Origin: Minisyncoccota bacterium
GTDB lineage: Bacteria > Patescibacteriota > Minisyncoccia > Phycocordibacterales > UBA2100
NCBI GenBank assembly: GCA_036517335.1
Contig: DATDWX010000027.1
Coordinates: 24,192-88,191 of the forward strand
Reading direction: 5' to 3'
Length of the DNA stretch: 64,000 nucleotides
Numbering within the stretch: the stretch's first letter is position 1; each line of letters begins with the position of its first letter. Below are positions 1 through 55,909 of the stretch, one piece after another. Position numbers and translations under genes: made by a program. The notes beneath the pieces were generated by a model, which saw only the letters and a program-made list of their open reading frames with translations, was not told where the DNA came from and did no database searches.

Positions 1-324
1 GGTGCCCTCTACGTTGGTCTTGATGCACAAACTGGGGTTGCTGATGCTCTGATCCACGTGGCTCTCTGCCGCAAAATGGATTATGTGGGTCGGCTGGTAC
101 TGCTCAAAAATGCTCGTCATGGCTCCCACATCGCAGATATCCGCTTTCTCAAACACATAGTTTTTCTGCTCGTGCACCGTGACATTGTGTACGTCTGCAG
201 CGTAGGTGAGTACATCAACATTGATGAAGAGTTCCCGCGGATATTTCTTGACCGCGTAATTAAGGTAGTTGCTGCCGATGAAGCCTGCCCCGCCAGTCAC
301 AATAATTTTCTTTTTGTGTTCCAT
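1..324 (-). CDS. rfbB: dTDP-glucose 4,6-dehydratase, N-terminal part (gene runs off the window start)
   Basis: Reverse-strand translation from the ATG at 322-324 gives MEHKKKIIVTGGAGFIGSNYLNYAVKKYP...HFAAESHVD. This is the typical Rossmann N-terminus of RmlB-type extended SDR enzymes. Confidence 0.8.
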   Translation of the reverse strand, partial: MEHKKKIIVTGGAGFIGSNYLNYAVKKYPRELFINVDVLTYAADVHNVTVHEQKNYVFEKADICDVGAMTSIFEQYQPTHIIHFAAESHVDQSISNPSLCIKTNVEGT

Positions 325-7225: not shown

Positions 7226-7295
7226 GGGTACACCCCGTTAGAGGCCTCGCGAAATGTGCACGCGTTTTGCCATGAAGGCCTCTAACGGGGTACAC
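7226..7295. repeat. palindromic element: inverted copies of GGTACACCCCGTTAGAGGCC separated by a 24-bp spacer
   Basis: Arms at 7226-7248 and 7274-7295 are reverse complements. The CCCGTTAGAGGC core recurs at 20678, 35632/35899 and 53515/53619. Confidence 0.7.
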
Positions 7296-7726: not shown

Positions 7727-9405
7727 CGTACTTTGCGTACGATGTATGAATAGCCGAGTTGGTCGGAAGCGAGGAAAACGGGCAGCGTATTTACTTCTTG
7801 TGGCGAGAGTCCGCAAGCTTTGGTATTGATCTCAAAACATCTCCCCGTCGATGCCTCCGACTCTGCGCAGCGTGCAGTGCAATCCCTCGAAATGACCCAG
7901 ACGGCGTTGGTAGAGGTGGCAAAACGCGCCAAGGCCGCAGTCATTTGCTCATCTCGGTAGGCGGTGATAGTGAGCGGTTTGAAAGACGTGTCTGCGGCCA
8001 GCTGTTCGCGATTTTGCAGTAGGAACGCAAAACGACTCATCGCTTGTCGTTCTTCGTCAAGCAGCGCGAGTGACGCATAATTGACTGGAAGTGTCATGCG
8101 GCGTGCGGAATGGTCCGTGATGAAGATCGTATCCGGTGAATTAAAGCGCGCCTTGATAGTATCGAGCAACACCGACTCTGATGAGGGTTGCCAATAGAGC
8201 GAGATCGCGTGGACGCCGATGAGAGCGAAAAGCGCTAGAGCGATGACCAGTACACCTCGTGCCACCCCCTTTCCGATCTCACCCAACAGTATGGCTACAG
8301 AGAACGCACCGGCGAGTGTGAGGGGGATGCCGTAGCGCGCAGCGACATCAAAACCGACGATCAGGTGAAAGAATAGATAGGTAAAGACTGGGTAGAGAGC
8401 AATAAGTATGAGGAAGCTGCGTTTGCGTTTTCCGGAGAAGAATTGCTTGTTGCGTGCAGCAATAATGATCAATGCCACGATCACGATTGGAAACAGCAGA
8501 AAGAGCGGGTGCCCTTCAATGGCGTAGATCAAGGGCTTTACGAGGCGTGGAAACCAGTCGATGCTGCCGTCTAAGGTTTTTGCCGATTCGTCTGCAATGC
8601 TCTCGCGTATCATATACAGACGGTAGAGGAACGACACTTGCGTGGCGCACACGAGAGCAATCAGGTACCAATATTTTGCAACGTGTTGCCACACATCGCG
8701 GATCGTGAAGTGTCCGAGCAGGTAGCTATAGAGCATGAGAAGGCCGACCGAGAATGCACCAACGAAGCTCTGGAAAAAAGTCAGAATCACGCTCCACACC
8801 ATAAGCGCCACATACGTGCGTCTCTTGAAGAATTCTTCATTGCGCTCCGCGAGGTAGTATTCTTGCGCGATGAAAAACGCGCTCGTCAGTGCCACGAAGA
8901 TGATGTAGTAAGCCCACATTTTTGCGGTATGCAAGAATTCGATCACGAGTACGTTGCTAAGGAGCAAGAATAGGAAGAGTGTCAAGGTGAGCGCAAGCGG
9001 CTGCGGGACCTTTCTTTTTTTAAAAAGGAAGAAACAAAAGAGAATCGCGCCGAGCGCCGTTGCGCCGCTCACCAGGCGAAGTATGTGGAGCAGCTCTCCC
9101 GTATTGATCGCGACCCAGAGCTTCGCCGCGGAGAGGGAAAAGTGCTCCACGATTACCACGCTTGCCACCACCGGTATCAAAACGGCGGTGTCCACGTATG
9201 TCTGAATGCCGCCGTAGTACGCGCCCGAGGGAGAGAATTCCCAGCCTGGCAGCGTGTGTTTTTCTATCGAAGCAAGCGAGCTCGTGAGGAAGTAGCTCTC
9301 GTCCAAGATAATATCCGGATTATTGCCGAACGGATTGGGGTAGAGAATCACTACTGCAATGAAGAGAAAAAGTGCAGGCGGCAGCGCTTTTTTCACCATT
9401 GCCAT
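7723..9405 (-). CDS. large polytopic membrane protein, candidate lipid-linked-sugar glycosyltransferase (Gtr type-specific or GT-C-like)
   Basis: 560 aa with more than 12 transmembrane segments and a C-terminal soluble region. It is adjacent to the GtrA-like and GtrB-like genes. Confidence 0.45.
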   Translation of the reverse strand: MAMVKKALPPALFLFIAVVILYPNPFGNNPDIILDESYFLTSSLASIEKHTLPGWEFSPSGAYYGGIQTYVDTAVLIPVVASVVIVEHFSLSAAKLWVAINTGELLHILRLVSGATALGAILFCFFLFKKRKVPQPLALTLTLFLFLLLSNVLVIEFLHTAKMWAYYIIFVALTSAFFIAQEYYLAERNEEFFKRRTYVALMVWSVILTFFQSFVGAFSVGLLMLYSYLLGHFTIRDVWQHVAKYWYLIALVCATQVSFLYRLYMIRESIADESAKTLDGSIDWFPRLVKPLIYAIEGHPLFLLFPIVIVALIIIAARNKQFFSGKRKRSFLILIALYPVFTYLFFHLIVGFDVAARYGIPLTLAGAFSVAILLGEIGKGVARGVLVIALALFALIGVHAISLYWQPSSESVLLDTIKARFNSPDTIFITDHSARRMTLPVNYASLALLDEERQAMSRFAFLLQNREQLAADTSFKPLTITAYRDEQMTAALARFATSTNAVWVISRDCTARCAESEASTGRCFEINTKACGLSPQEVNTLPVFLASDQLGYSYIVRKVR

Positions 9406-9435
9406 GCTGGGCAGTATACTGCATACTCTTCGTCA

Positions 9436-10518
9436 ATGAAGCGCAGGGCGTTTATCACCGGTATCACGGGCCAAGATGGCTCGTATTTGGCTGAATACCT
9501 CATCGGAAAAGGCTATGAGGTGTATGGTTTGATGCGGCGCACGAGCCTGGATCCCATGATGCGGCTCGAGAGCGTAATGAAGAGCGGCAAACTCAAATTG
9601 CTCTACGGCAATCTACGCGACGCTGCCTCACTTGCCCGCGCGCTCCAAGAGAGCAAGCCCGATGAGATCTACAATCTCGGCGCGCAATCCGATGTGGGCA
9701 TCTCCTTCAAAATTCCTGAAGAGACGATGGACGTCAATTATCATGGCCTCGGGCGCCTCATCAATGAAGCGACGCGTATCAGCGGGGCGGTGAAGATATT
9801 CCACGCCTCTACCGGTGATTTCTTTCTGCGCGCACATCCGCCGCAAAACGAAGTGGCGGTACGTCACGCCTCGTCTCCCTACGGAGAATCCAAATTGCGC
9901 GCGTATGAAGATTTTGTAAAAGACTACCGCGATCGCCGCCACGTCTTCATTAGTTCGGGTTTCATGTTCAATCACGAATCACCGCGGCGCGGTGAGCATT
10001 TTGTGACCCGTAAAATATCGCGGGCGATGGCAAAAATAAAGCTCGGACTCTCGAAGGATTTTTCGCTCGGCAATTTGGATGCACACCGCGACTGGGGATA
10101 CGCTGGCGATTATGTGAAAGCAATGCATCTGATGTTGCAGGCTAAGACACCCAGCGATTACGTGATCGGCACGGGCGAGGTCAACAGTGTGCGTACATTT
10201 GTGGAGGCATCTGCTCGCGAGCTCGGCATGTCTCTTACGTGGAAGGGCAGTGGGATGAAAGAAGTGGGTCAGGTGAAGGGGAAGACGATCCTCACCATCA
10301 ATAAGGAATTTTATCGCCCACCGGAAGCTGATTACCTCCTCGCGGATATCTCAAAAGTGCGCCGCGAGCTCGGATGGAAACCAGAAGTTGATTTTCAAGG
10401 ACTCGTCAGCATGATGGTGCGAGCGGATGTGGAGTCGCTTCGGCATCTCGCCCGCCCCGCTAGGGGCAAGGCTTCTAAGGGCTCTTCCACTAATAACCTG
10501 AAAGGTATTAGGGGTTAG
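9436..10518 (+). CDS. gmd: GDP-mannose 4,6-dehydratase
   Basis: MKRRAFITGITGQDGSYLAEYLIGKGYEVYGLMRRTS and NHESPRRGEHFVTRKISRA are GMD hallmarks. The start is the internal Met of ORF 9085..10518. The C-terminal 25 aa look like read-through, so the true end may be nearer 10440. Confidence 0.8.
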   Translation: MKRRAFITGITGQDGSYLAEYLIGKGYEVYGLMRRTSLDPMMRLESVMKSGKLKLLYGNLRDAASLARALQESKPDEIYNLGAQSDVGISFKIPEETMDVNYHGLGRLINEATRISGAVKIFHASTGDFFLRAHPPQNEVAVRHASSPYGESKLRAYEDFVKDYRDRRHVFISSGFMFNHESPRRGEHFVTRKISRAMAKIKLGLSKDFSLGNLDAHRDWGYAGDYVKAMHLMLQAKTPSDYVIGTGEVNSVRTFVEASARELGMSLTWKGSGMKEVGQVKGKTILTINKEFYRPPEADYLLADISKVRRELGWKPEVDFQGLVSMMVRADVESLRHLARPARGKASKGSSTNNLKGIRG

Positions 10519-18334: not shown

Positions 18335-19768
18335 ATGATCAAGGATATTGTCGAGACGACAGATTCGCAGCGGGAGGCCGATGTGTGCATTGTAGGAGCG
18401 GGAGCTGCAGGCATCCTCCTTGCGCTCGAATTGATGGAGGCGAGCCGCTCCGTCATCCTCCTTGAAGGGGGCGGTCTCACGCAAGATCTGCACGCCCAGG
18501 CGCTATACGACCTCGAATCACCGCTTCTTCCCGTGGGTAAGGATTCACGCGTGCGCGTATTTGGCGGCACCACAAGCGTATGGACAGGCGGATGGAAGCT
18601 GCTTGAGCGAGACGACCTCACGGTGCGCGATTGGATGCCGCTCTCCGGGTGGCCCGTGTCGTACGCCGAAATGGAGTTGCTTTACGACCGCGCGGCGAGG
18701 CGCGTGTGCGGACCCTCCACCGTCGACATTGCCGCCGTTACCCATGCGCAAGCCGCAGTGGATTTTTCGAAGCGCATTACCGAGAGCGGCGCGCTCGAGA
18801 CGACCGTGCTGTGGGAGCTGCCGGAGCGAGCGCGAGATTTCGGCAAGGTATTTCGGGCTGCGCTCGAAGCATCGCCTGCCGTACGGATCTTTCTCAACGC
18901 CAATGTGACGCGCATAGAGCGAGATGTCTCTCGTGTACGCTCCCTGCATATCAAGACATTGGAGGGCAGGGATTTCAATGTCAAAGCTTCCAAGTATGTG
19001 ATCGCCTGCGGTGGGATCGAGAACGCCCGTCTTCTCCTTGCTTCCGGCATTGGAAATGAACATGATCAGGTGGGGCGTTACTACATGGATCATCCGAAGG
19101 GCACGGTGGGCGCTATTGCCGCCGACGACTACTCTCTCTACAGCCACGTCATCACGCAGCAGCGGCGCGAGGCGGGCACGCTTATCACCGGCTTTCAGCT
19201 CTCCCCCGCTTTTCGCAGTGCGCGTAAGCTTCCTAATTGCTACGTGCAGATGCGTCCCATCTACGGGAAGCAATCCTTACCGAGTCGTGCAATGCACAAA
19301 TTCTTCGGCGTGCCGTACCCTGTCCGCGGCGTGCGTTTGCGTACCTTTATGGAGCAGGTGCCCTCGCCGCGCAGCAGGGTGGTACTCGGGGATGCGAGGG
19401 ATGCATTTGGTAATCCGCTTGCGAGAGTGGAGTGGTCGCTTTCGGAGCTCGACAAAGAAGGCGCGCGTGCGCTGCACCTTGTGGTGCAAGGCGAACTTGC
19501 GCGCGCGGGGCTCGGCACCCTCACCTCTGAAATCGTGGACCACCCCGAGCCGTGGCCCATTACCAAGGACGCATCGCACCATATGGGCACGACGCGCATG
19601 GGCGCTGATCCGCACACGTCGGTAGTCGACCCCGACTGCCGTGTACACGGAGTGAACAACCTCTTCATCGCCGGAAGCTCGGTATTTCCGACAGGAGGAA
19701 ATGCGAATCCCACGGCCACTATTCTTGCGCTCGCCGTGCGCTTGGCCGATCACATTAAAACAATATGA
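18335..19768 (+). CDS. GMC-family FAD-dependent oxidoreductase
   Basis: DVCIVGAGAAGILLALEL at the N-terminus and the C-terminal HHMGTTRMGADP...NLFIAGSSVFPTGGNANPT GMC signature. Confidence 0.75.
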   Translation: MIKDIVETTDSQREADVCIVGAGAAGILLALELMEASRSVILLEGGGLTQDLHAQALYDLESPLLPVGKDSRVRVFGGTTSVWTGGWKLLERDDLTVRDWMPLSGWPVSYAEMELLYDRAARRVCGPSTVDIAAVTHAQAAVDFSKRITESGALETTVLWELPERARDFGKVFRAALEASPAVRIFLNANVTRIERDVSRVRSLHIKTLEGRDFNVKASKYVIACGGIENARLLLASGIGNEHDQVGRYYMDHPKGTVGAIAADDYSLYSHVITQQRREAGTLITGFQLSPAFRSARKLPNCYVQMRPIYGKQSLPSRAMHKFFGVPYPVRGVRLRTFMEQVPSPRSRVVLGDARDAFGNPLARVEWSLSELDKEGARALHLVVQGELARAGLGTLTSEIVDHPEPWPITKDASHHMGTTRMGADPHTSVVDPDCRVHGVNNLFIAGSSVFPTGGNANPTATILALAVRLADHIKTI

Positions 19769-20874
19769 TGGAAAAACTACGCCGATCTCGCGTGCTCGTT
19801 TTTACCGCAGGCGATCACATCACCGCGAGCTCAAAATATCGAGCATTTCTTCTTGGCTCATACCTCACCGAAACGCGTCCGGATATAGAGTGGAAGCTAG
19901 TCGAGCCCTCCACGAAGATCCTGTCGTCGCTGGGCTATCTCACGCAAATGTGCGCTGTATTCTCTCAAGCGCGGCGGCTGTTTTGGCGACCGGAGCACGA
20001 TGTCGTCTTTATACAACGCGCCATCTACAACAAATTCGTTTTCGCCTTGCTTATCTTGCAAAATATTCTCCGCATCCGCCCAAGTATTTTTGATTTTGAT
20101 GATGCCATATTCCGACATTCGGGCTTCAAGACGCGCCTCTTGTGTAAGACGTCCAGTGCCGTGATCGTGGGGAGCCACTTTCTGCAGGAATATGCGCAGC
20201 GCTACAGCAAGCGTGTCATCCTCGTCCCAACGTGCATCAGATTTTCCGACTACGCGTCAATACCCAAGATGGGAGATAGATCTACATTCACAATCGGTTG
20301 GATCGGGAATGGGCCAGCGTCGCTGCCCGAGCTGCGCTTCATGGCCGAGGCGCTGAAGGAGCTGAATACTCGCACCCAGGCGTTCCGCCTTCTCCTCATT
20401 GGTCATCAGGGGCATCCGGAGATCCCGGGACTCTTCGAGTTTCTTCCTGCCGAGCGCAAAGAGCTCATAGATTATGTGAATGCAAAGACAGACGCTGATC
20501 TGATTCCGTATCTCGCGAAGATGGATATTGGTCTCATGCCACTCGAAGAAAGCGAGTGGAACAGGGGCAAGTGCGCATTCAAGGCTATTCAATATATGGC
20601 TACTGGCGCGGCGGTTGTGGCGAGCCCAGTGGGTGAGAATCCTGTTCTCATCACGCATCGCGTTACGGGAATGCTTGCCCCGTTAGAGGCTTCGCCTCTA
20701 ACGGGGCTTGCCGCGACCAAAGAGGAGTGGGCGTCGTGCATACAAGAGCTCATGCAAGATCCCGCGCTCCGGCAGCGCATCACTGTAGCCGCCCGCGACC
20801 ACGTCCGGGCGCACTATTCTTTCGAATCCCAGATCCCGAAACTGACCGAAGTCATCGACTCGCTTATCCATTGA
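19765..20874 (+). CDS. glycosyltransferase (GT1/GT4-like, GT-B fold)
   Basis: C-terminal AIQYMATGAAVVASPVGE motif. It contains an in-frame 29-bp palindromic insertion (see the repeat at 20678). Confidence 0.6.
   Translation: MMEKLRRSRVLVFTAGDHITASSKYRAFLLGSYLTETRPDIEWKLVEPSTKILSSLGYLTQMCAVFSQARRLFWRPEHDVVFIQRAIYNKFVFALLILQNILRIRPSIFDFDDAIFRHSGFKTRLLCKTSSAVIVGSHFLQEYAQRYSKRVILVPTCIRFSDYASIPKMGDRSTFTIGWIGNGPASLPELRFMAEALKELNTRTQAFRLLLIGHQGHPEIPGLFEFLPAERKELIDYVNAKTDADLIPYLAKMDIGLMPLEESEWNRGKCAFKAIQYMATGAAVVASPVGENPVLITHRVTGMLAPLEASPLTGLAATKEEWASCIQELMQDPALRQRITVAARDHVRAHYSFESQIPKLTEVIDSLIH
20678..20706. repeat. 29-bp perfect palindrome CCCCGTTAGAGGC-TTC-GCCTCTAACGGGG inside the glycosyltransferase coding sequence, flanked by the direct repeat GCTTG/CTTGCC
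   Basis: Read directly from the sequence. It has the same core as the other CCCGTTAGAGGC elements and encodes PLEASPLTG in frame. Confidence 0.75.
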
Positions 20875-20943: not shown

Positions 20944-23900
20944 ATGAATAGAGTCCCTAAGCGGGCTTTCGTTGTCGTCCTTGCTACGGCTGTTATTGTT
21001 GGTAATGCGGTGTCGGCGTATGCGGTGGTTATTCCTCCCACTGCACCCGGCCAATCCGTTTTCACCATCGGCAATCAAACGCCAAGAGTTGACGGCTCCA
21101 CGGGCGCACTTACAAGGCACATTTCTCTCGATATTCCGCCGGGGCGAAGCGGATTGCAACCTGATATTTCGCTCGATTACAACAGTCAGAACACCGAGCA
21201 AGAAAGCCTGGTCGGGTATGGTTGGACGCTATCGATCCCGTATATCCAAAGGCTCAACAAGACCGGTTCGCAGAACATGTATGGTCCAAATGCGTACTTC
21301 ACGTCCTCCTTCGACGGTGAGCTCGCAATTTCAGATACAGGGACTTCCACCTCTATGACCGTTTTGGTGGTGGCCGGTGGCGGAGGCGGCGGTAGTGATG
21401 GCGGAGGTGGAGGTGGGGGTGGAGTCAAAACAGTCACTATTCCTATTACAACGCCCCAAGCATATTCAGTCACTGTCGGAAGTGGGGGCACTGCCGGATC
21501 TGCCGGTGCCGGAACGCACGGTGGTCAGGGCGGGGATTCAGTTTTCGACAGTACCACTGCGCACGGGGGCGGATATGGCGCTGCACCAAATGGCGACACA
21601 AACCATCCGGCTGCTGGTGGGAGTGGCGGGGGTGCGGGGTATGGCAACAGCACCTCCGTCCCTACAGCAGGTGGTGCGGGTACTGCTGGCGAGGGAAATA
21701 ATGGCGGTGGCGGTTTGAATGGAGTGTCATCGTATGGTGCCAGCGGAGGCGGTGGTGGGGCAGGTGCTGCGGGCGCTGATTCTCCAGGGGGTGACACAGG
21801 GGCAGGTGCGGGAGGCACCGGTACTTCATCATCAATAAATGGCACTGCGACGTATTATGGAGGTGGAGGGGGAGGCGGTGGATTGCAAGGTGCCTACGGT
21901 GGAAATGGAGGCAACGGCGGCGGAGGCGGTGGCGCAAGTGGAAGTGGCACGCAGGGCACCGGCGGTAGCAACGGGGGCGCAAATGGCACGAACAGTTCAA
22001 ATGGTACCGGTGGAGCCGGCGGTACAAACTCCGGCGGAGGCGGAGGCGGAGGAGGTTTTCAATCAGACTACGGACCGGGCGGCGCGGGTGGTTCGGGCAT
22101 CGTCATTATCTCGGCTCCTGTCGGAGCGATCACATCCGCAACGGGCGGAACTCATACGACCGCGGGAGACAATGATGTATGGACGTTCACCGCTAGTGGC
22201 ACATTTACCATTGTCAGTGTTGCCGACGGCGCTTCAGATTCGCCAGCTTCATCAACCTATCGCGCCCGGGTAGACGACGGATCATTTCGCTCATACTCAT
22301 ATGCCACCTCGAGCAATTCATGGACGATGTACGATAAGAAGGGGACTCGATACCTTTTTGGTGCGAGCAGTCAGGGTCAGCAGAGCGCCACCACAAGTCC
22401 GAGCAGTGTATATAAATGGATGCTCGAAGAAGTACGCGACACCAACGACAATTATATTTCCTATACATACTTGAAAGATGAGAATCAGATATATCCGTAC
22501 CAAATCAAGTACACGGGCAATGGCGTTTCCGACGGTCCGAGTACTATTACAATTGCCACATCCACCAGAAGCGACCAGGCGGTAAGCTATAAATCCGGAT
22601 TCAAGGTCTTGACCGCGTATCGCATCTCCCAAATTACCGCGACTTTCAATAGTACAAACGTGCGCCAGTGGGCACTTGGATACGGTACCGGCAACAATGG
22701 CTCGCGCTCACTTCTCACAAGCATTCAAGAAACCGGCTGGAATGACGCAGGCACTCAAACCACGCTCCCTGCCGCGACCTTCGAGTATGTCAGCACCACC
22801 ACGCCGTTCTACGGGCCCAATCTTGGTACCAATGTTGTAGGTTCTGCGTACGTCGTTGCTGATTCCGAGGGGGACGGCATAAATGGCATCAGCATATTGT
22901 ATCTGGACGGGGGGAGTAATAAAGGAAAGATCATAAGTCCTGACGGCAACACCACAACAAATTTGACATCCCCAGCGCCACCTGAAGAGTGGTCGAATAG
23001 TGGGGGAGGGGCCCCGCTACCCACCTATTTGGCTGATGAGCGCGGCGTGCGCTATCTCGACGTTAACGCTGACGGGAAGCCAGACGTGGTGCGCGGCATC
23101 AAAGATGATTATGCGGCCACGACCACCAAGCAAATATATGAAAATACGTATGCCGCAACATCAACCTACGGCTGGACCAATGGGATCTCATGGAGTGGAA
23201 CCATTCCGGAATTCGCATACAAAAGCGATTCCACGCATAGTTGGACGACGGGTATTTTCGGGGATATCAATGGCGATGGCTTGCCCGATTATGAAGAGTC
23301 GCTCAACAACACCGGCGGCGCCATTACCAACGGCGCATATTTGGGCAATGGTACTGCATGGGATGCTGCTACCACCACCATATTCGCAGCCATGAATGTC
23401 ATGCCGGATTCTGTAAGCGGCCCGACAGTCTACAATCCACAACTGATCGATATCAACGGCGACAGTCTCGCCGATTGGGTGTCTTCGGACAGTTCTAATA
23501 CCTACGTACAGCTCAACACCGGGACGGGCTGGGTATACGACACCCGCTGGATCATCGCCACTTCCACGCTCTATCATTCCACTTCACCAGGCAACACCTA
23601 CTACGACCGTGGCATTCGGTTTATGGATATGAACGGCGATGGGCTGCCCGATTTTGTGCGTGCTTATGCCAACGCCCCCTTTACCGGTAGTGTCACCGAG
23701 CCAGAAATTGAGGTGGCAACGATAAGCTTGGTGCTTCTCAATACCGGGTCCGGATGGGCTACCAGTACTGCATACACTCTCGCCCCGATCGCATCCCCGT
23801 ATCATGATTCCGGCACGTCGTGGACAAGCGGGGTGATCGTCTACAACGAATATGCAAATTGGATAGGCAATGGCCAGATGCAACAAGACGTGCTTGCGAC

Positions 23901-26900
23901 CACGACCTCATCCAAGGGGGGTAGTACGACGGTTTCCTACGGATTGACGACGCAAACGAGCGCGAATACACAGCTGCCCTATGCACTGCTGACGGTCAAT
24001 TCAATTACAGATCACGATGGTCGCGGGAGCAATGAACGAACCGATTACGCATATTCGGGTGGGTTGCAATACCTTCCTTCCAATGTGTACGACCGCAAAT
24101 TTGCAGGCTTTGCAAGCACCACCGAAACGCGCCCCGACAAAACGACTGTCCGGTATTACCATCAAGGCACTCTTATGCAAACCGCGCTCGGCGAGCAGAG
24201 CAACGGATACGCCCACATCAATCATCCGTTCCGCGAAGATGTGTTTACTCCCAGCGGTACATCGGTACAAAAGACCTTCTATCGGTGGGACCCGTATACC
24301 AATGCGAGCAGCACACTCATTCTTCTCGGTAGGAAGTTGGAGCAAAACTATGCGAGCAATGGCACGCACCGCGATAAGGATACGGATTATGCATACGCGA
24401 CCAGTACGGGAGATATAATACGCATCAACGATTTCGGCGAAGTGAGCGGCAATTCCAACGGCACATTCAGCGACATTTCAGGCGATTCCCGCACTACGCG
24501 CTTTACCTATGCCGCGAGCAGCTCGGTATTCATGAGTGTCCCTATCCAAAAGACATTGCTCGACAACAGTTCCGCTACGAGTACTGATACGAAACTCTAT
24601 TACGACTCGCTTGCATTTGGGTCGGTGGGGCGTGGGAATCAGACAATGCAGAAAGATTGGATCTCGGGTGATACCTACGCTTCTACCACAAGAGCCTACA
24701 ACACATACGGCCTCGCGAGCAGCTCGACGGATAGGGGTGGCAACCTCACTTCCTACGTGTACGACAGCTTCAACCTATATCCCGCCACGAGCACCAATGC
24801 GTCTTCGCAATCCACACGCTTCACCTACAATTATTCAAACGGCAAGACAGCCACGACGACAGATCCAAATACCGCAATAGCCAAAAATATGTACGATGGC
24901 GTCGGACGACTAACAGAAATGTATCAATCCGACACCTCTAATCCGAGCACACTCGTTACCAAGGCCACCTACACGTTCACCGACAGCACGTCCACACCCT
25001 CTTTGATACGAGTTACGCAATACCTCAACTCCGCGACGACGACCGATACCTACACCTTTTATGACGGTCTGAACCGCCCCATTCAGGAGCGCAAATCCAC
25101 AGAGACCGCCGGCACCTACGCGACCACTGATCGCATCTACCACAGGGTGGGCAACCTGGCCTCGACAACGCTTCCGTATTTCTCATCGGGCACCTCGCTT
25201 ACGACAGCCACGAGTACCACCGCCCTCTATACCGAATTTCTCTACGATCCACTCGGTCGTCCCACGAAGGTCTCCAACTCTGTGGGCAGCACCACGAATA
25301 CATACGGGAAGTGGACGACCACTACGGTTGATCCAAACGGCAGTATCAAAGAGTATCTACTTGATGCGTACGGCAATCTCTCGCAGGTCGTGGAGCACGC
25401 TACCTCCACTGCGACCACGACGTATACATACGACGCTGCGGGCAACCTAGCATTGATCACCGATGCAGCATCGAGCACACGCGCTTTCACCTACGATGGA
25501 TTGGGGAGACGCACGGGCGCGCAGGATCTCCACGCGAGCGGCGATGCAACCTTCGGATCATGGTCGTACAGCTACGACGATGTAGGCAACCTTACGTCGC
25601 AGACCGATCCCAAGGCCCAGGTCATCACGCACACATTCGACGCGCTCAATCGCATGGTAACGGAAGCTTTGAGCGGCTCCGGAGTGCAGATCACCAACAC
25701 CTATGATTCATGTACCTACGGCGTCGGGCGACTCTGCAGCGCATCGAGTACTGCTGCACTCAATGCCTATGAATACGATGTGCTCGGCCGCACCAGCATT
25801 GCCACCAGTACCGTCAACGGTACTGGATATGCGACGGTGTATGGATATGATCGCCAGGGCAACCAAACATCCATTACATACCCGGACAAACGAGAAGTGA
25901 GCTACGTCTACAACGCCGCGGGTCTGATGAACTCGGTCAGTACCAAGCCGGTGGGCGGCGCATACTCGTCCGTTCTATCTGCCACGACGTACGCACCGGA
26001 TGGTAAACCTCTTACGAAACTCTTCGGCAACGGCGTCGAAACCACCTATACCTACGATCCCCTTCTGCAGTATCGTCTAACCCGGATGTTGACGGGCACC
26101 AATGCGGGCACGTCCACGGAAATCGTGCCGCTGGTGAGCGACCCGGTGGCGTACTGGAATCTGGATGAATCAAACGGGGTTGCCTACGATGCCATTGCCT
26201 CCAACGACCTCACCAACAACAATAGTGTTTCCTACGCGACCGGTACGATAAGCAATGCCGCTACCTTCGTAGCTGCCAATTCGCAATCGCTCCAGAAACT
26301 CACCGCTTCTGGCTTACCCACAGGTAGTGAGTCCATCGCCGCGTGGGTGAAATTCACGTCGCTTCCTGTAAGTACATGGTATGGCATCGTGGAGCAGGGC
26401 AACGCCGCGACGTCTTCAAAATTTGGCCTCACGATCACCGATGATCCGGTAGGGGCAGACAACCTCTACTCGTTGGCCATTGATCACTTCGGCGGCACCA
26501 ATGTGTATAGCGATGCCTGGTCTGGCGTGGCGACCGGCACATGGTATCACGTGGCCGCTACCTATGATGGGACCAATTTTCGCTGGTATGTAAACGGATC
26601 GCAGCTCGGCGCGGCAAAGGGCGCAGGCACGCAGACGACCAGCGGCGCGCAGATCGTGGTGGGAGCCATGATAGACAGCTCCTTGGAAAACTTCCTCAAC
26701 GGTTCCGTGGATGAGGTCGGGGTGTGGGACAACGTCTTGACGCAAAGCGAACTCACGGCGCTCTACAACGCGGGCGCGGGAGAGGCATATCCCTTCGGCA
26801 CTACCACGGTCAGCACGTATGGCTACGCCAACCTCATTCAGGATTTGAATTACACGTATGATGCGGTGGGCAACATTACGAATGTCACGAATAATTCCAC

Positions 26901-33888: not shown

Positions 33889-35631
33889 ATGCAGCGCGTT
33901 CGTCATCTTTGGGGTCTGTACCAGAAGGCCTTCGGGGCCTATACCTGGCAAATAGTGCTTATCATGGTGCTCGCGTTTGTCTCGAGCATTGTGGAGGGTA
34001 TCGGGATAAGCGCCATTATTCCGATATTTAGCTTCGTCGGCGGCACGCCGGGCGCTGCGGGCGACACCATCTCGCACATCATCGCGGGGATGTTCTCTTT
34101 TTTCCACATTACCTACACTTTCCGGATGCTGCTCATCTTCATCGGAGTCCTCTTCGTGCTCCGGATCTTCTTTATATTCGGCATCCAGTATGTGACGGGC
34201 TACATCATTTACAACTACGAGCGTGATCTGCGTCTGCGACTTTTCGGCGGGACGCTGGAGAGCCGTTGGTCGTACCTCTCGCAGCAGAAGGTCGGCAATT
34301 TGGAGCAGCTCCTCACTACGAATACCAGCAATGCCTCACAATTCTTCGGCAATATTTCCGCCTCCGCTCTCATATGCACGAAAGTCTTGATCTACATTGT
34401 GATCGCGATCAACATTTCGTGGTGGATCGCGCTGTTTAGTTTGCTCGCCGGATTCTTGATGGTCTTCGTGTTGCGCCCGATCTTCTATAGAGATCGCGCG
34501 ATAGCGACCGACGCGGAGCGCACCAATCGCTCGCTCGCACATTTCGTCAGCGAGCATGTCATCGGCATGAAGGCGATCAAGGCGATGGCGCTTGAAGAGC
34601 CGGTCAAAGCGCGCGGACGTGAGTTCTTCGACCTGACGCGTACGCTGAATCTGCGCGCCCGAGTGATGGGCGGCTATGTACAGGTACTAGTGCAAAGCGC
34701 GGGCATCGTTTTCGTCGCCATCACCTTCGCTATCATGTATCGTTCGCCGGGCTTCACGCTCGCTTCCTTTGCGGTCATCGTGTACGCCATCAATCAGATA
34801 TTCGCGCAGATACAGTCCGGCCAAAATCAGCTCCACACCATTGTGCGGCTCCTTCCCTATATTGGCGAAGCGTTTGCATATGGCGATCGCACGAAGGCGA
34901 ATGCAGAGGCGCGTGGCGGGGGCGCTCCGTTTGCTCTCCAGCAGAGCATTGAATTTCGCCACGTATCGTTTACATACCCAGAGCGCGGGAGTGTCTTGTC
35001 TGATGCGGATTTCCAGATCCACAAGGGTGAGCTACTTGGTATAGTGGGTCCCTCCGGCGCGGGCAAATCCACGCTTGCCGATTTGCTCCTGCGGCTTATC
35101 GAACCCACGAGTGGCATGATCGTCGTCGATGGGCGCGATGTGCAAGAAATATCAGTCGAGGCGTGGAGGTCGCATGTAGGCTATGTGGCGCAGGATGCGG
35201 TCTTGCTCAATGATACGATCGAGCAGAATATTCGCTTCTACAATGCGAAGGTGGGAATGGCGGATGTGGTCGCGGCGGCAAAGCTCGCGAATATTCACGA
35301 ATTCATCGAGACGCTGCCGCGGGGATACGAGACGGTGATCGGGGATCGTGGCATCCTCCTCTCCGGAGGCCAGCGTCAGCGGGTGGCGCTTGCGCGCGTC
35401 TTGGCGCGCAAGCCAGAGCTTCTCGTTTTGGACGAAGCCACCAGCTCGCTCGACCAAGAATCCGAACGCGCCATCCAAGCGGCGGTCGAAGGACTGCGCG
35501 GCGGCATCACGATCGTCGTCATCGCGCACCGGCTCTCGACCATCGAAGGAGCTGATCGTTTCATCGGGATCAAAGATGGAGTTGTTTCCGAATTGTCTCG
35601 CGACGAGGTGTTTGCAACCCGTTCCGTATGA
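33889..35631 (+). CDS. ABC exporter, fused permease and ATPase
   Basis: Six N-terminal TM helices, then Walker A GPSGAGKST, signature LSGGQRQRVALARVL, and Walker B LLVLDEATSSLD. Start taken at the internal Met MQRVRHLWGLY. Confidence 0.8.
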   Translation: MQRVRHLWGLYQKAFGAYTWQIVLIMVLAFVSSIVEGIGISAIIPIFSFVGGTPGAAGDTISHIIAGMFSFFHITYTFRMLLIFIGVLFVLRIFFIFGIQYVTGYIIYNYERDLRLRLFGGTLESRWSYLSQQKVGNLEQLLTTNTSNASQFFGNISASALICTKVLIYIVIAINISWWIALFSLLAGFLMVFVLRPIFYRDRAIATDAERTNRSLAHFVSEHVIGMKAIKAMALEEPVKARGREFFDLTRTLNLRARVMGGYVQVLVQSAGIVFVAITFAIMYRSPGFTLASFAVIVYAINQIFAQIQSGQNQLHTIVRLLPYIGEAFAYGDRTKANAEARGGGAPFALQQSIEFRHVSFTYPERGSVLSDADFQIHKGELLGIVGPSGAGKSTLADLLLRLIEPTSGMIVVDGRDVQEISVEAWRSHVGYVAQDAVLLNDTIEQNIRFYNAKVGMADVVAAAKLANIHEFIETLPRGYETVIGDRGILLSGGQRQRVALARVLARKPELLVLDEATSSLDQESERAIQAAVEGLRGGITIVVIAHRLSTIEGADRFIGIKDGVVSELSRDEVFATRSV

Positions 35632-35912
35632 ATCCCGTTAGAGATGACAAAAGTTGGTATACCTACGTACTTCGGAGTTTGAAGGACGGTAATTGGTACA
35701 CCGGTTTTACGAACGATCTACGGAAGCGCTTCAAGCAGCACAACGACGGGCTTACGTTCTCGACCAAAGGACGTCGTCCGTTAGAGGTGATATATTACGA
35801 AATGTGTAGAAATGAGCATGATGCTCGGTCGAGGGAATTATTTCTTAAATCTGGTATGGGAAAGCGTTATTTGCAAAACCGCTTGAAGCGCTTCCTATCT
35901 CTAACGGGATGA
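35628..35912 (+). CDS. GIY-YIG nuclease-domain protein (94 aa)
   Basis: SWYTYVLRSLKDGNWYTGFTNDLRKRFKQHN is the GIY-x10-YIG motif with the conserved R and N. The ATG overlaps the ABC transporter's TGA, and its own TGA overlaps the next gene's ATG. Confidence 0.75.
   Translation: MNPVRDDKSWYTYVLRSLKDGNWYTGFTNDLRKRFKQHNDGLTFSTKGRRPLEVIYYEMCRNEHDARSRELFLKSGMGKRYLQNRLKRFLSLTG
35632..35910 (+). mobile_element. small element bounded by 12-bp terminal inverted repeats ATCCCGTTAGAG / CTCTAACGGGAT, carrying the GIY-YIG gene and inserted at an ATGA gene junction
   Basis: TIRs at 35632-35643 and 35899-35910. The same termini and the same flanking ATGA...GAAATT context recur at 53515-53631. Confidence 0.6.
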
Positions 35913-53436: not shown

Positions 53437-53514
53437 CATGATTTTCATGCCAAGCGGCTACCGATCTAGGGCGTTTGCTTCATACAAATGCTAGTGCTAG
53501 CATTGCAACAATGA

Positions 53515-53631
53515 ATCCCGTTAGAGGCCGCGGTCGCTCAGCGAATATCATTTACATGCATGTGGTCGAAATTACAAGAACGTCTAATCGCAGCTTGCGG
53601 GTAGCAGACCGCGACCTGCCTCTAACGGGAT
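53515..53631 (+). repeat. MITE-like, gene-less derivative of the GIY-YIG element (TIRs ATCCCGTTAGAGGC / GCCTCTAACGGGAT), encoding only a 40-aa ORF MNPVR...LPLTG
   Basis: It has the same 12-bp termini and the same ATGA / GGGATGAAATT junction context as 35632-35910. Its stop TGA overlaps the ATG of the downstream gene. Confidence 0.6.
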
Positions 53632-55909
53632 GAAATTTCTTGAGCAGACATTGCGCTCTATCGTCTTGTGTGGCGTTTTTGCCCTCCCAGTGGTCGCGCT
53701 TATCGTCGCCAACGAGCTTTTCTTCCCTTACATTACGGGCAAAAATTTTGCCTTCCGGATCATTGTCGAGATCATCACGGGCGCGTGGCTCGCCCTTGCG
53801 CTCGTCGTACCGAAGTGGCGCCCACGGCGCAGCTGGATTTTGGCGAGCTTTGCACTCTTTATATTCATAATGGCGCTGGCGGATGCGCTGGGCGCGTACC
53901 CGTTTAAGAGTTTTTGGAGCAACTACGAACGCATGGACGGCTTCATAACGATCGCGCATACGTTTGTGTACCTCGTGGTTCTGACCGCCGTGATGCAAAG
54001 CGAAAATCTTTGGCGCCGTTTGTTCCAATGGTCGCTCGTGGTTTCGGTATTTTTGAGCGTGCTCGGATTGCTGCAAGTAGCAGGTGTGCTCGCGCTTGGC
54101 TCCGGCGGCACGGGGCTCACGGGTCGTGTTGATGCGACGTTCGGCAATCCAATCTATTTTGCCGCCTACATGCTCTTCCATGTCTTCATCGGTATTCTGC
54201 TTTGGTATCAGATGTGGCAAGTACGCGGCAAAGGAAATAGACTCACCCCCTCTATATTTTACGGTTTTGTGATCGCGCTTGATACTGTGGCGCTCCTCCT
54301 CACCGGCACACGCGGCACGATGCTCGGCCTCATCGGCGGCGCATTTCTCACGCTCGTACTGCTCTCGATTGTCCCCGAGGCGCGTCGCTTGCGGCAGGTG
54401 ACTGCGATCGCTCTTGTAGCCCTGATCATCGGAGGCGGGGTGTTGTGGTCTGTGCGTGAAAGCGCGTTCATTCAGCGCATCGCTTTTTTGAACCGTCTCG
54501 CCTCGATCTCTCTGACTGACAACACGACGAAAGCACGCTTTTTCAACATGGGTATGGCTTGGCAGGGGGTAAAGGAGCGACCGCTCCTCGGCTGGGGGCA
54601 GGAGAACTACGCGGTCGTTTTCGACAAGTATTACGATCCACGAATGTACGGGCAAGAGCAGTGGTTTGATCGTGTGCACAATATCATCTTTGACTGGTGG
54701 GTTGCAGGAGGTTTTCTCGGACTTCTCGCCTACATCTCTATCTTTGTCGCAGCACTCTGGGCACTGTGGCGACCGAGCGTCGAGCGAGGAAGTACTGAAG
54801 CAAGCATGCTGAATGTGCGCAGAAGTCCTTCGGGTGTGGCGACCTTCACACACCCCGAGCGTAGCATTTTGACCGGACTGCTCGCCGCCTACACGGTGCA
54901 CAACATGACCGTCTTCGACAATGTGACGAGCTACATCCTCTTCGGAACGATTTTGGGCTACATTGCATACCGCGAGGCAGTGGCGCAAAGCGCGCACTCG
55001 ATTTTTGAGAAAGAATTTTTACCACGCGGCGCGCTCTCGATCGTGGCTGCCCTCGCAGCACTCGTCGTGTGGGGAGCAGCGTGGAGTATCAATACACACG
55101 CCTTCGCGGAGAACGAAAAAATCCTTGCCGCGTTGCAGCAGCGATCAGGTGGTCCCGCACAGAATCTCGCACTTTTCAAAGAGGCCATTAGCTACGGTAC
55201 CTATGGCGATCAAGAGGCACGTGAGCAACTCGCGCAGGTAGCAGCGCAGATCGCGGGAGCAGATGTGCCCGCCGACCTCAAAGCGCAATTTCGGGAGACC
55301 GCGGTACACGAACTTGATCTTCAGGCCGCGCAATCGCCCCTCGACGCACGCTTCCCGCTCTTTGCCGCGATGGTGCTTGGCGCGCACGGTGATTACGCCG
55401 CTGCAGCGACAAAATTGGAGCGCGCTCACGAGCTTTCGCCAAAGAAGCAAACGATACTGTTTGAGTTGGCCCAAAATGCAGGGCTGCGCGGCGATGTAAA
55501 CGCATCTCTCCAATATTTCAAGACGGCCTTTGAGCTCGAACCCGAGTATCTAAACGCGCGCATCTACTATGCCTCGGCATTGATCCGTGCGGGCAAAGAT
55601 GCCGACGCAGACGCCGTGCTTGCACCCATCATCCCCACGGGGGAGGCGGCGGACACACACATCACCGGCGCGTACGTTGCTCGCAAACAATTTGGTAAAC
55701 TGATCCCCATCTGGCAGGCGCGCATCGCCGTGTCTCCATCCGACGCGCAGGCGTATTTCACCCTAGCCGCTGCCTACTTCGAGTCTGGTGATACTGCGCA
55801 TGCGATTGCGACACTGGAGAAAGCAGGATCCCTCGACCCGGCCGTGAAAGAGCAGGCAGACAAGTATATTTTGGATATTCGGAGCGGGGTACTTAAGCCG
55901 GGGCAGTAA
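53630..55909 (+). CDS. Wzy_C-family (O-antigen ligase / O-oligosaccharyltransferase-like) membrane protein with C-terminal TPR repeats
   Basis: About 400-aa polytopic N-terminal region with ...GTRGTMLGLIGG... and the periplasmic loop typical of Wzy_C. The C-terminal 300 aa are Ala-rich TPR-like helices. Confidence 0.6.
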   Translation: MKFLEQTLRSIVLCGVFALPVVALIVANELFFPYITGKNFAFRIIVEIITGAWLALALVVPKWRPRRSWILASFALFIFIMALADALGAYPFKSFWSNYERMDGFITIAHTFVYLVVLTAVMQSENLWRRLFQWSLVVSVFLSVLGLLQVAGVLALGSGGTGLTGRVDATFGNPIYFAAYMLFHVFIGILLWYQMWQVRGKGNRLTPSIFYGFVIALDTVALLLTGTRGTMLGLIGGAFLTLVLLSIVPEARRLRQVTAIALVALIIGGGVLWSVRESAFIQRIAFLNRLASISLTDNTTKARFFNMGMAWQGVKERPLLGWGQENYAVVFDKYYDPRMYGQEQWFDRVHNIIFDWWVAGGFLGLLAYISIFVAALWALWRPSVERGSTEASMLNVRRSPSGVATFTHPERSILTGLLAAYTVHNMTVFDNVTSYILFGTILGYIAYREAVAQSAHSIFEKEFLPRGALSIVAALAALVVWGAAWSINTHAFAENEKILAALQQRSGGPAQNLALFKEAISYGTYGDQEAREQLAQVAAQIAGADVPADLKAQFRETAVHELDLQAAQSPLDARFPLFAAMVLGAHGDYAAAATKLERAHELSPKKQTILFELAQNAGLRGDVNASLQYFKTAFELEPEYLNARIYYASALIRAGKDADADAVLAPIIPTGEAADTHITGAYVARKQFGKLIPIWQARIAVSPSDAQAYFTLAAAYFESGDTAHAIATLEKAGSLDPAVKEQADKYILDIRSGVLKPGQ

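Follow-up and report, generated by a model that had tools for sequence, protein, structure and literature searches.

A 29-bp palindrome resident in frame in a patescibacterial glycosyltransferase gene is probably a miniature of a transposable-element family that encodes a GIY-YIG nuclease

How does a glycosyltransferase gene come to hold, in an uninterrupted reading frame, a short perfect palindrome whose arms also bound a nuclease gene some 15 kb away? The question is raised by a 64,000-nucleotide stretch of contig DATDWX010000027.1 from a Minisyncoccota bacterium (hereafter the window), in which the glycosyltransferase gene at 19765..20874 of the + strand contains the 29-bp palindrome CCCCGTTAGAGGC-TTC-GCCTCTAACGGGG at 20678-20706. 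[quoted passage not shown] The arms and the target-site duplication of the glycosyltransferase copy are shared with an element that carries a GIY-YIG nuclease gene, and copies of the family that lie within genes are filtered for reading frame.

The sequence, arms and loop of the palindrome, read from the window, are as an earlier note on this DNA had described them. The surrounding segment, 20673-20712, reads GCTTG-CCCCGTTAGAGGC-TTC-GCCTCTAACGGGG-CTTGCC, and a repeat finder reported for 20678-20706 a palindrome with 14-nt arms, 100% complementary, and a 3-nt loop. Folding of the single-stranded DNA predicts a single hairpin (-21 kcal/mol, z = -5.8). When ≤2 mismatches are allowed, the window contains the 13-mer arm 8 times, as against 1.17 expected, and 0/100 shuffles reached this number; a scan of the whole window with Rfam at gathering thresholds matched no family. 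The direct repeats that had been noted on either side (GCTTG...CTTGCC) are real and extend to GCTTGCC at 20673-79 and 20706-12, but the flank statistics of the whole family restrict the true target-site duplication to the 4-bp CTTG, with a left copy at 20674..20677 and a right copy at 20707..20710, and assign the outer C/G to the arms, so that the remainder of the repeat is terminal C/G overlap. In these terms the unstranded mini-element at 20678..20706 has 13-bp arms, composed of a terminal C:G pair, the invariant core CCCGTTAGAG and then GC, around the loop TTC.

The host gene encodes a GT4-type (GT-B, group 1) glycosyltransferase of 369 aa (PF13692, E=4.5e-13). In order to compare it with its relatives, the query was aligned with a 100%-identical twin and 20 further homologues from a large protein collection, the nearest named homologue being from Candidatus Peribacteria. 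The segment in question is missing from 20/20 of these other homologues (65-34% identity) as one clean 11-column gap, the flanks of which are conserved (...G-M-L-A / A-T-x-E-E-W...), and the pre-insertion sequence reconstructed by removing it, ATG CTT GCC GCG (M L A A), agrees with the homologue consensus. The segment is thus derived by insertion rather than an ancestral loop, and it is an insertion relative to all of these homologues. The palindrome had been said to add about 10 codons without breaking the frame; the frame is indeed kept, and the addition is exactly 33 bp, or 11 codons, encoding APLEASPLTGL at residues about 305-315. An identical protein, insert included, is found in a Candidatus Paceibacterota metagenome-assembled genome whose ENA, NCBI and JGI assemblies are independent, so the insert is no assembly artefact. 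An AlphaFold2 model built on the homologue alignment has a mean predicted local distance difference test score (pLDDT) of 89.4, and residues 308-315, within the insert, are the sole internal stretch with pLDDT <50; the model places the insert in a low-confidence surface loop between the strand 302-304 and the helix 319-331. Both checks that the earlier note had proposed, on orthologues and by modelling, thus came out in favor of an insertion tolerated in a loop. Directly downstream of the glycosyltransferase gene, at 20944-29733, lies an open reading frame (ORF) of 2929 aa with YD/RHS-like repeats and two long near-duplicate glycine-rich segments.

The same arms are found in three further pairs in the window, at 7233-7290, 35633-35909 and 53516-53630, which gives a window total of three short copies and one full-length copy. 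The full-length element (35633..35909, + strand, 277 bp), whose arms end in a T:A rather than a C:G pair, contains the nuclease gene, which was located through the arm motif. This 94-aa ORF (35628-35912) has a GIY-YIG domain (PF01541, E=7.7e-16) covering residues 10-76. The element is flanked by a TGAA duplication (35629-32 and 35910-13), and both the ATG and the TGA of the nuclease ORF are supplied by the duplicated host ATGA: the nuclease ATG shares bases with the stop codon (35629-31) of the ABC-transporter gene upstream, and the nuclease TGA with the ATG (35909) of the capsule-synthesis gene downstream. A 115-bp non-autonomous derivative with the same arms (53516..53630, + strand) has a TGAA duplication at 53512-15 and 53631-34 and sits directly on the start codon (ATG at 53630) of an O-antigen-ligase/TPR gene; it can itself be read as a 40-codon ORF from an ATG at 53511. 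The third derivative, of 58 bp and unstranded (7233..7290), has perfect 16-17-nt arms, a 28-nt interior and a TACA duplication at 7229-32 and 7291-94. A peptide signature like that of the glycosyltransferase insert had been claimed for this copy (as near 7226), but the copy is intergenic, between divergent genes, and is crossed only by short, spurious ORFs, so the resemblance just reflects shared DNA sequence. Two weak arm-like matches with 2 mismatches, at 9805-9817 (-) and 10455-10467 (+; CCCCGCTAGGGGC, at the 3' end of the ORF 9085-10518), may be degenerate copies or chance. An arm-like motif, TCCGTTAGAGG, also occurs at 35777-35787 inside the nuclease ORF (codons RPLE), and among the loci examined only the copy in the window has it.

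The nuclease of the window belongs to a very uniform family that comprises 2473 clusters (E<1e-5) from Kaiserbacteria, Paceibacterota and other Patescibacteria, almost all of them with a length of exactly 94 aa. Catalytic-type residues are conserved, and few parts of the protein are as well conserved as its arm-encoded ends, MNPVRD and RFLSLTG. The predicted structure (pLDDT 85) has the GIY-YIG fold, with UPF0213 and Slx1 as the only nearest solved folds in a Foldseek search of the PDB; the best characterised relatives are UPF0213 (1zg2, 5e-8) and yazA of B. subtilis. NCBIfam gave only a sub-threshold match to a group I intron endonuclease, and a tblastn search of plasmids found only YazA-type Firmicutes proteins. 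GIY-YIG genes are among those apparently donated by Patescibacteria via horizontal transfer (PMC12455944).

For a comparison of the ends of the element, 80 genomic loci were collected by peptide patterns that exclude the N-terminal arm. The pair CCCGTTAGAG...CTCTAACGGG brackets the GIY-YIG gene in 73 elements among these 80 loci, and the core that the palindrome had been said to share with the nuclease element is therefore common, at the DNA level, to the element at 35633-35909 and to 73 relatives. Codon usage was then compared in the 43 GIY-YIG genes that are in register (35-50% GC). The arm codons are nearly fixed at both the N-terminus (P3 CCC in 43/43, V4 GTT in 42/43, R5 AGA in 42/43) and the C-terminus (S91 TCT in 39/39, L92 CTA in 43/43, T93 ACG in 43/43), with entropy of ~0 as against 0.8-2.4 bits (2-6 codons) at equally conserved residues elsewhere. 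The ends of these elements are ≥98% complementary over exactly 13 positions, after which complementarity falls to background, and positions 1, 12 and 13 of the arms covary (at position 13, T:A in 20 genes, C:G in 19 and A:T in 4). Fixed synonymous codons, complementarity and covariation together mean that the constraint on the arms acts on the nucleic acid and on its pairing, and not merely on codons; the arms are under constraint at the DNA level. Away from the arms, R32 is CGG in 42/43 and F89 is TTC in 42/42, while other conserved residues use many codons, and this fixation may mark an internal nucleic-acid site.

The insertion signature was derived from the flanks of 212 distinct listed copies of all sizes (mini, mid-size and full). 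Left-flank positions -5..-2 are repeated on the right in 72-83% of these copies, compared with ~20-28% for neighbouring positions, and the 4-bp duplication holds in each of the three size classes against a background of ~0.25. A 6-bp duplication model was considered at first and was replaced, after per-position statistics, by 4 bp plus an 11th arm pair. The duplicated sequence is variable but follows YNNR (TAAA, TTTA, TTCA, TGAA, CTCG, CTTG and others), and the arm-adjacent Y:R pair is C:G in 95/123 and T:A in 19/123 of the minis listed, as against T:A in 57/71 full copies. The family unit can thus be written Y-CCCGTTAGAG-NN ... NN-CTCTAACGGG-R, a 13-bp (11+2-nt) inverted repeat with a 4-bp YNNR duplication. 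Some further target preference is suggested by the recurrence of particular sites: a 56/58-bp Kaiserbacteria copy (L009, 9877-9932) is flanked by the repeat GCTTGC as at the glycosyltransferase copy, and several other copies also lie at GCTTGC or GCAAGC.

Full copies show, in addition, a characteristic arrangement on host start codons. In 32/44 full copies with a perfect duplication TGAA is preceded by A, the target being the gene start ATGAAN. The left junction of an inserted copy reads ATG-AAT and then CCC GTT AGA (M-N-P-V-R); at the right junction, ACG GGA is followed by a TGA that shares bases with the regenerated ATG. This start-to-TGA(+1) layout is found in its exact form in 39/71 full copies, of which 37 start with ATG and 2 with GTG; a long ORF follows from the regenerated ATG or GTG in 53/71, and an upstream ORF on the same strand ends within 60 nt in 45/71. 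The element thus borrows both its start and its stop codon from the host ATGA, contributing neither itself, and the host gene remains intact. The layout may reflect target preference or the survival of copies that are expressed. A class of ~107-124 bp also recurs with the same arms and duplication, at loci L007, L011, L013, L041, L043, L058, L060, L061, L063, L080, L082 and L090 as well as in the window (53511-53634); 7/18 of these copies lie on a gene start, and copies from different genomes have unrelated interiors, in which a second GC-rich hairpin often lies beside the right arm. Copies are sometimes clustered, as in the tandem at L058 (2763-3161), where a full-length element is immediately followed by a mid-size one, or where minis lie within or beside other minis (L146 1003-1050, L149 1137-1248 and L167 10167-10235).

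In order to determine whether residence in frame is peculiar to the glycosyltransferase gene, metagenomes were scanned for both 10-nt arms within 3-33 nt of one another, which gave at least 120 loci; the counts that follow refer to the 120 distinct minis listed. Lengths between arm ends peak at 27, 36, 48 and 51 nt, the net insertion being 6 nt longer. The length is a multiple of three in 80/120 (binomial p=9e-14), and this excess persists among 73/108 distinct sequences and 33/53 sequence clusters (p=1.5e-5). When a mini was counted as lying in an ORF if the spanning ORF had at least 40 codons on each side of it, 35/38 minis in ORFs had a length divisible by three compared with 45/82 outside (Fisher p=2.8e-5). 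The frame that contains a TAG is never used, and the open frames are PVR...SNG (21) and PLE...LTG (18, including APLEASPLTGL of the window). At the same time only 32% of minis lie inside ORFs, as against 61% of random 27-bp windows of the same contigs. The earlier note had suggested that the palindrome tolerates, or is selected for, residence in frame: the depletion in ORFs combined with the filter on length indicates frame-blind insertion followed by purifying selection, with no preference for coding sequence, so that tolerance with filtering stands and selection for residence does not. These data support the view that the in-gene pattern reflects copies tolerated once purifying selection has acted, as well as the success of subfamilies with lengths divisible by three, and not an attraction to genes.

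The spanned genes include, by Pfam, those for Mfd/TRCF, TsaD, PurL, a PIF1-type helicase, UvrD, SecA and a P-type ATPase, and in these housekeeping genes Pfam domains either flank the insert on each side or extend over it. The closest parallel to the glycosyltransferase copy is a 27-nt mini in an Mfd/TRCF gene (L153, 1987-2013), the peptide of which, PLEASPLTGRA, is almost identical to the glycosyltransferase insert; in an alignment with E. coli Mfd (6x26) the insert appears as a gap of exactly 11 residues that falls between helicase motif II and SATPIPRT. Similarly, alignment of another helicase (L125) with PcrA puts the insert in a variable linker. Subfamilies of minis recur at unrelated loci with their own duplications (18 copies of 36 bp, 14 of 48 bp and 14 of 27 bp among the matches listed).

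Viral matches to the arms were treated separately. The contigs L201-L228 from IMG/VR, together with L179 and L183 (GC ~0.44), have the same 10-nt core in AAAAGG-hairpin-CCTTTT palindromes, with inverted GG/CC flanks and a T-run and without a direct repeat, and 27/28 viral matches were accordingly rejected as members of the family and assigned to a terminator-like hairpin of one phage group. Only L215 among those phage contigs has the duplication and the in-frame signature.

The best account of the glycosyltransferase insert, in our judgement a highly probable one as far as the origin of the palindrome is concerned, is the following. An autonomous form of 277 bp would consist of a single gene for a 94-aa, single-domain GIY-YIG nuclease between the two arms, and would usually land on A|TGAA at a host gene start, where the nuclease would be translated from the host ATG and terminate at the TGA that overlaps the regenerated host ATG. 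The glycosyltransferase copy, reduced to the arms and a 3-nt loop, would have landed at ATG-CTTG-CC within codons 303-305, the net gain of 33 bp in the stop-free PLE...LTG frame adding 11 residues to a surface loop and leaving the gene open. Insertions in genes that shift the frame or contain a stop would be removed by selection, which is how copies in frame would come to persist. We infer that the GIY-YIG protein mobilises both forms, probably through recognition of a hairpin or cruciform that the arms would form, because the nuclease is the sole gene of the autonomous unit, because its catalytic-type residues are conserved, and because precedents exist in Slx1-type enzymes, which are structure-specific, and in the Ssn nucleases, 94-aa single-domain GIY-YIG proteins that bind their own hairpin repeat in single-stranded DNA (ssDNA) and cut beside it (PMC11893778). 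That the arms of full copies covary could be accounted for by pairing of the ends in a single-stranded intermediate or by capture of ORFs by hairpins.

Several points weigh against this account. The GIY-YIG protein is a candidate enzyme only. A 4-bp duplication is not an obvious outcome of the activities of known GIY-YIG enzymes, which either nick ssDNA or produce 3' overhangs of 2 nt. Arm positions 12-13 are AT/AT in the resident full copy as against GC/GC in the glycosyltransferase copy, so that the latter is not a direct deletion product of the former. At the glycosyltransferase locus itself an exact search of metagenome contigs for the 31-nt empty junction (GGAATGCTTGCCGCGACC) gave 0 matches, no strain-level empty site being found, and all members of the 90% cluster that span the site carry the insert. 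The contigs of the census are short and the criterion for residence in an ORF is heuristic; of ten in-ORF cases inspected one, L137, resembles a shadow frame of high-GC DNA and was dropped as an example, and 2/120 listed loci are hairpins of the phage terminator type.

Four other explanations were weighed. According to one, which we regard as unlikely though the best placed of the four, the hairpin is the primary unit and also the recognition site of a homing-type system, GIY-YIG ORFs are cargo in the loops, and the glycosyltransferase copy is an unoccupied site. The placement of the ORF exactly between two half-sites speaks for it, as does the sharing of one duplication rule by hairpin and full forms, and covariation at arm positions 12-13 would be natural if ORFs had repeatedly been captured by existing hairpins. 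Full copies, however, are concentrated on TGAA gene starts (32/44 perfect duplications) whereas minis follow the broad YNNR rule, a difference that could be explained by selection for expression; no orthologous pair of occupied and unoccupied sites was found, and the 4-bp duplications around both forms would still require a transposition-like step for the hairpin.

A second explanation holds that a full or mid-size element inserted in the glycosyltransferase gene and later lost its interior, by which the reading frame was restored, so that the 29-bp unit is a footprint formed in situ and never transposed. Internal deletion does occur, since a mid-size copy (L058_3043, at L058 3043-3161) keeps N-terminal codons of the GIY-YIG gene, and the loops of the 27-bp class differ between loci as would be expected from independent collapses. 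Against this, unrelated loci hold mini subfamilies whose members are identical or nearly so and have separate duplications, which indicates that minis propagate as such. Moreover, a 277-bp insertion carrying a stop codon in the middle of the glycosyltransferase gene would have to last until it was trimmed exactly to the arms plus 3 nt, and the arm extension of the resulting unit differs from that of the resident full copy. We give this explanation little credence.

Slightly less credible still is the proposal that the palindromes serve the host, being kept for a cellular role of the nuclease such as restricting or modulating incoming ssDNA, with the glycosyltransferase copy as one such mark. 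A precedent is available in the NTS/SsnA pair of Neisseria (PMC11893778), and a role of this kind would suit a core and a 94-aa protein that are extremely conserved between distant CPR lineages. On the other hand, the target duplications show that these are insertions, a copy in a coding loop can be explained without such a role, and minis are depleted in ORFs, those present being filtered for frame, as is expected if the insertions are neutral or mildly harmful; no concentration of copies near particular classes of gene was seen, although no test for it was made. Finally, an ancestral loop of the glycosyltransferase subfamily or a chance palindrome has practically no likelihood and was rejected, because the segment is missing from all 20 other homologues as one clean gap, three other elements of the window share its exact arm, at a count that no shuffle reached, a flanking duplication is present, and nearly identical peptide and DNA are inserted in the unrelated Mfd gene; nothing was found in its favor.

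The family can be compared with known systems, the closest of which are the Rickettsia palindromic elements (RPEs) and the Ssn/NTS system of GIY-YIG nuclease and hairpin, membership of either being unproven. A nuclease-associated palindrome living in frame inside genes had been called unusual, which it is, but it is not unprecedented: according to the summary in PMC10969869, which cites Ogata et al. 2000, RPEs insert in frame into unrelated genes. As far as that summary goes, the units described here resemble RPEs in being palindromic and MITE-like, in lying in frame in unrelated housekeeping genes with a peptide compatible with fold and function, and in occurring in host-dependent bacteria with reduced genomes. 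RPEs are described there as about 100-150 bp in length, in about ten families, restricted to Rickettsia and without an identified mobilising enzyme, and by those descriptions they are set apart from the present units of 26-53 bp with one invariant 10-nt core. The present family further differs in its 4-bp YNNR duplication, its autonomous partner with a GIY-YIG nuclease and its host, Candidatus Paceibacterota, from a different phylum.

The resemblance to the Ssn system extends to a 94-aa single-domain GIY-YIG protein, to the association of its gene with a dispersed hairpin repeat, and, in NTS/SRM, to hairpins with GC-rich stems and 3-nt loops. Ssn genes are bracketed by the repeat "like an IS" (insertion sequence), and the IS-like architecture was noted by the authors (Chenal et al. 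2025, PMC11893778). There, however, complete hairpins stand on each side of the gene, whereas here the gene lies inside one split palindrome and the repeat is dispersed through the genome. The NTS of Ssn systems are rarely in genes (2%), and that report describes neither target duplication nor residence in frame (PMC11893778). The published SRM pattern, HGTCWYN(0-2)YYVSBRHN(0-5)WNVSBRGN(0-2)RNCYNB, has one match in the window (115-144), which is no more than chance would give (0.57 expected), and none that overlaps the palindromes. Ssn nucleases form the clade cd10448, while the closest characterised relatives of the present protein are UPF0213/YazA and Slx1, so that membership of cd10448 is unproven.

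Repetitive extragenic palindromic (REP) sequences with their associated tyrosine transposases (RAYTs; together the REPtron) and the IS200-IS605 group likewise combine one small nuclease gene with short dispersed hairpin repeats that bracket it, with the single-stranded hairpin as the likely substrate. RAYTs and TnpA are HUH/Y1 enzymes, however, REPs are extragenic, and IS200/IS605 insertion occurs without target duplication; because the associated enzyme here is GIY-YIG and not HUH (Y1), the family is not a REP/RAYT system. Nor is it a classical homing endonuclease gene, in which a nuclease with an additional DNA-binding domain is encoded and which recombination copies into the cleaved cognate site without target duplication, given its single 94-aa domain and the flanking 4-bp target duplication. 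Classical MITEs such as Correia elements share with the present units terminal inverted repeats, a short duplication, a noncoding and multicopy character and repeats held in common with an autonomous element, but the presumed parent here has no DDE transposase, only the 94-aa GIY-YIG nuclease, and the minimal form, a 13-bp stem with a 3-nt loop, is far smaller than typical MITEs. Inverted repeats, a variable duplication of fixed length, and small size and multiple copies with ends shared with an autonomous element are all found, and at orthologous sites the insert is missing from all homologues at ≤65% identity, with no strain-level empty site. In structure the element is a MITE, for which the protein encoded by the full-length element would be the transposase.

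The overlap of start and stop codons with flanking genes, which would preserve translational coupling, recalls the mycobacterial interspersed repetitive units (MIRUs), intercistronic repeats reportedly described by Supply et al. in 1997 as having small ORFs whose start and stop overlap the flanking genes so that operon coupling is preserved. MIRUs are said to be tandem direct repeats of 46-101 bp in mycobacteria, without inverted repeats, a nuclease gene or target duplication. A search of the literature yielded no description of this family, of its duplication, of the start-codon layout or of in-frame copies in CPR genomes, the relevant publications being limited to the Ssn paper and reviews of RPEs, and the family, which is coherent, is apparently undescribed. 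It may even constitute an undescribed class of prokaryotic transposable element, defined by a 94-aa Ssn/UPF0213-like GIY-YIG nuclease as its sole protein, 13-bp hairpin-forming ends, a 4-bp YNNR duplication, start and stop codons taken from the host ATGA with the host gene left intact and translationally coupled, and in-frame hairpin derivatives in essential CPR genes, a proposal to which we give somewhat less than an even chance.

Selfish palindromes in frame in protein genes have hitherto been regarded as almost exclusive to Rickettsia, and for 25 years no enzyme that mobilises them has been identified. The same behaviour is now seen in another radiation with reduced genomes, the CPR, together with a clear candidate enzyme and a simple insertion signature that can be counted. 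If the element class is indeed new, it would provide the first identifiable mobilising enzyme for the RPE phenomenon. Several questions become testable in consequence, namely whether a bare GIY-YIG domain can drive hairpin transposition, by what route peptides of 11-19 residues enter loops of the essential proteins Mfd, SecA and UvrD, and how host start codons can be used for expression of an element without harm to the host gene. Gene calls and alignments of CPR genomes will contain such inserts, for which the invariant 10-nt core is a handy marker, and the pairing of this nuclease with its hairpin may offer a new specificity for ssDNA tools of the Ssn type.

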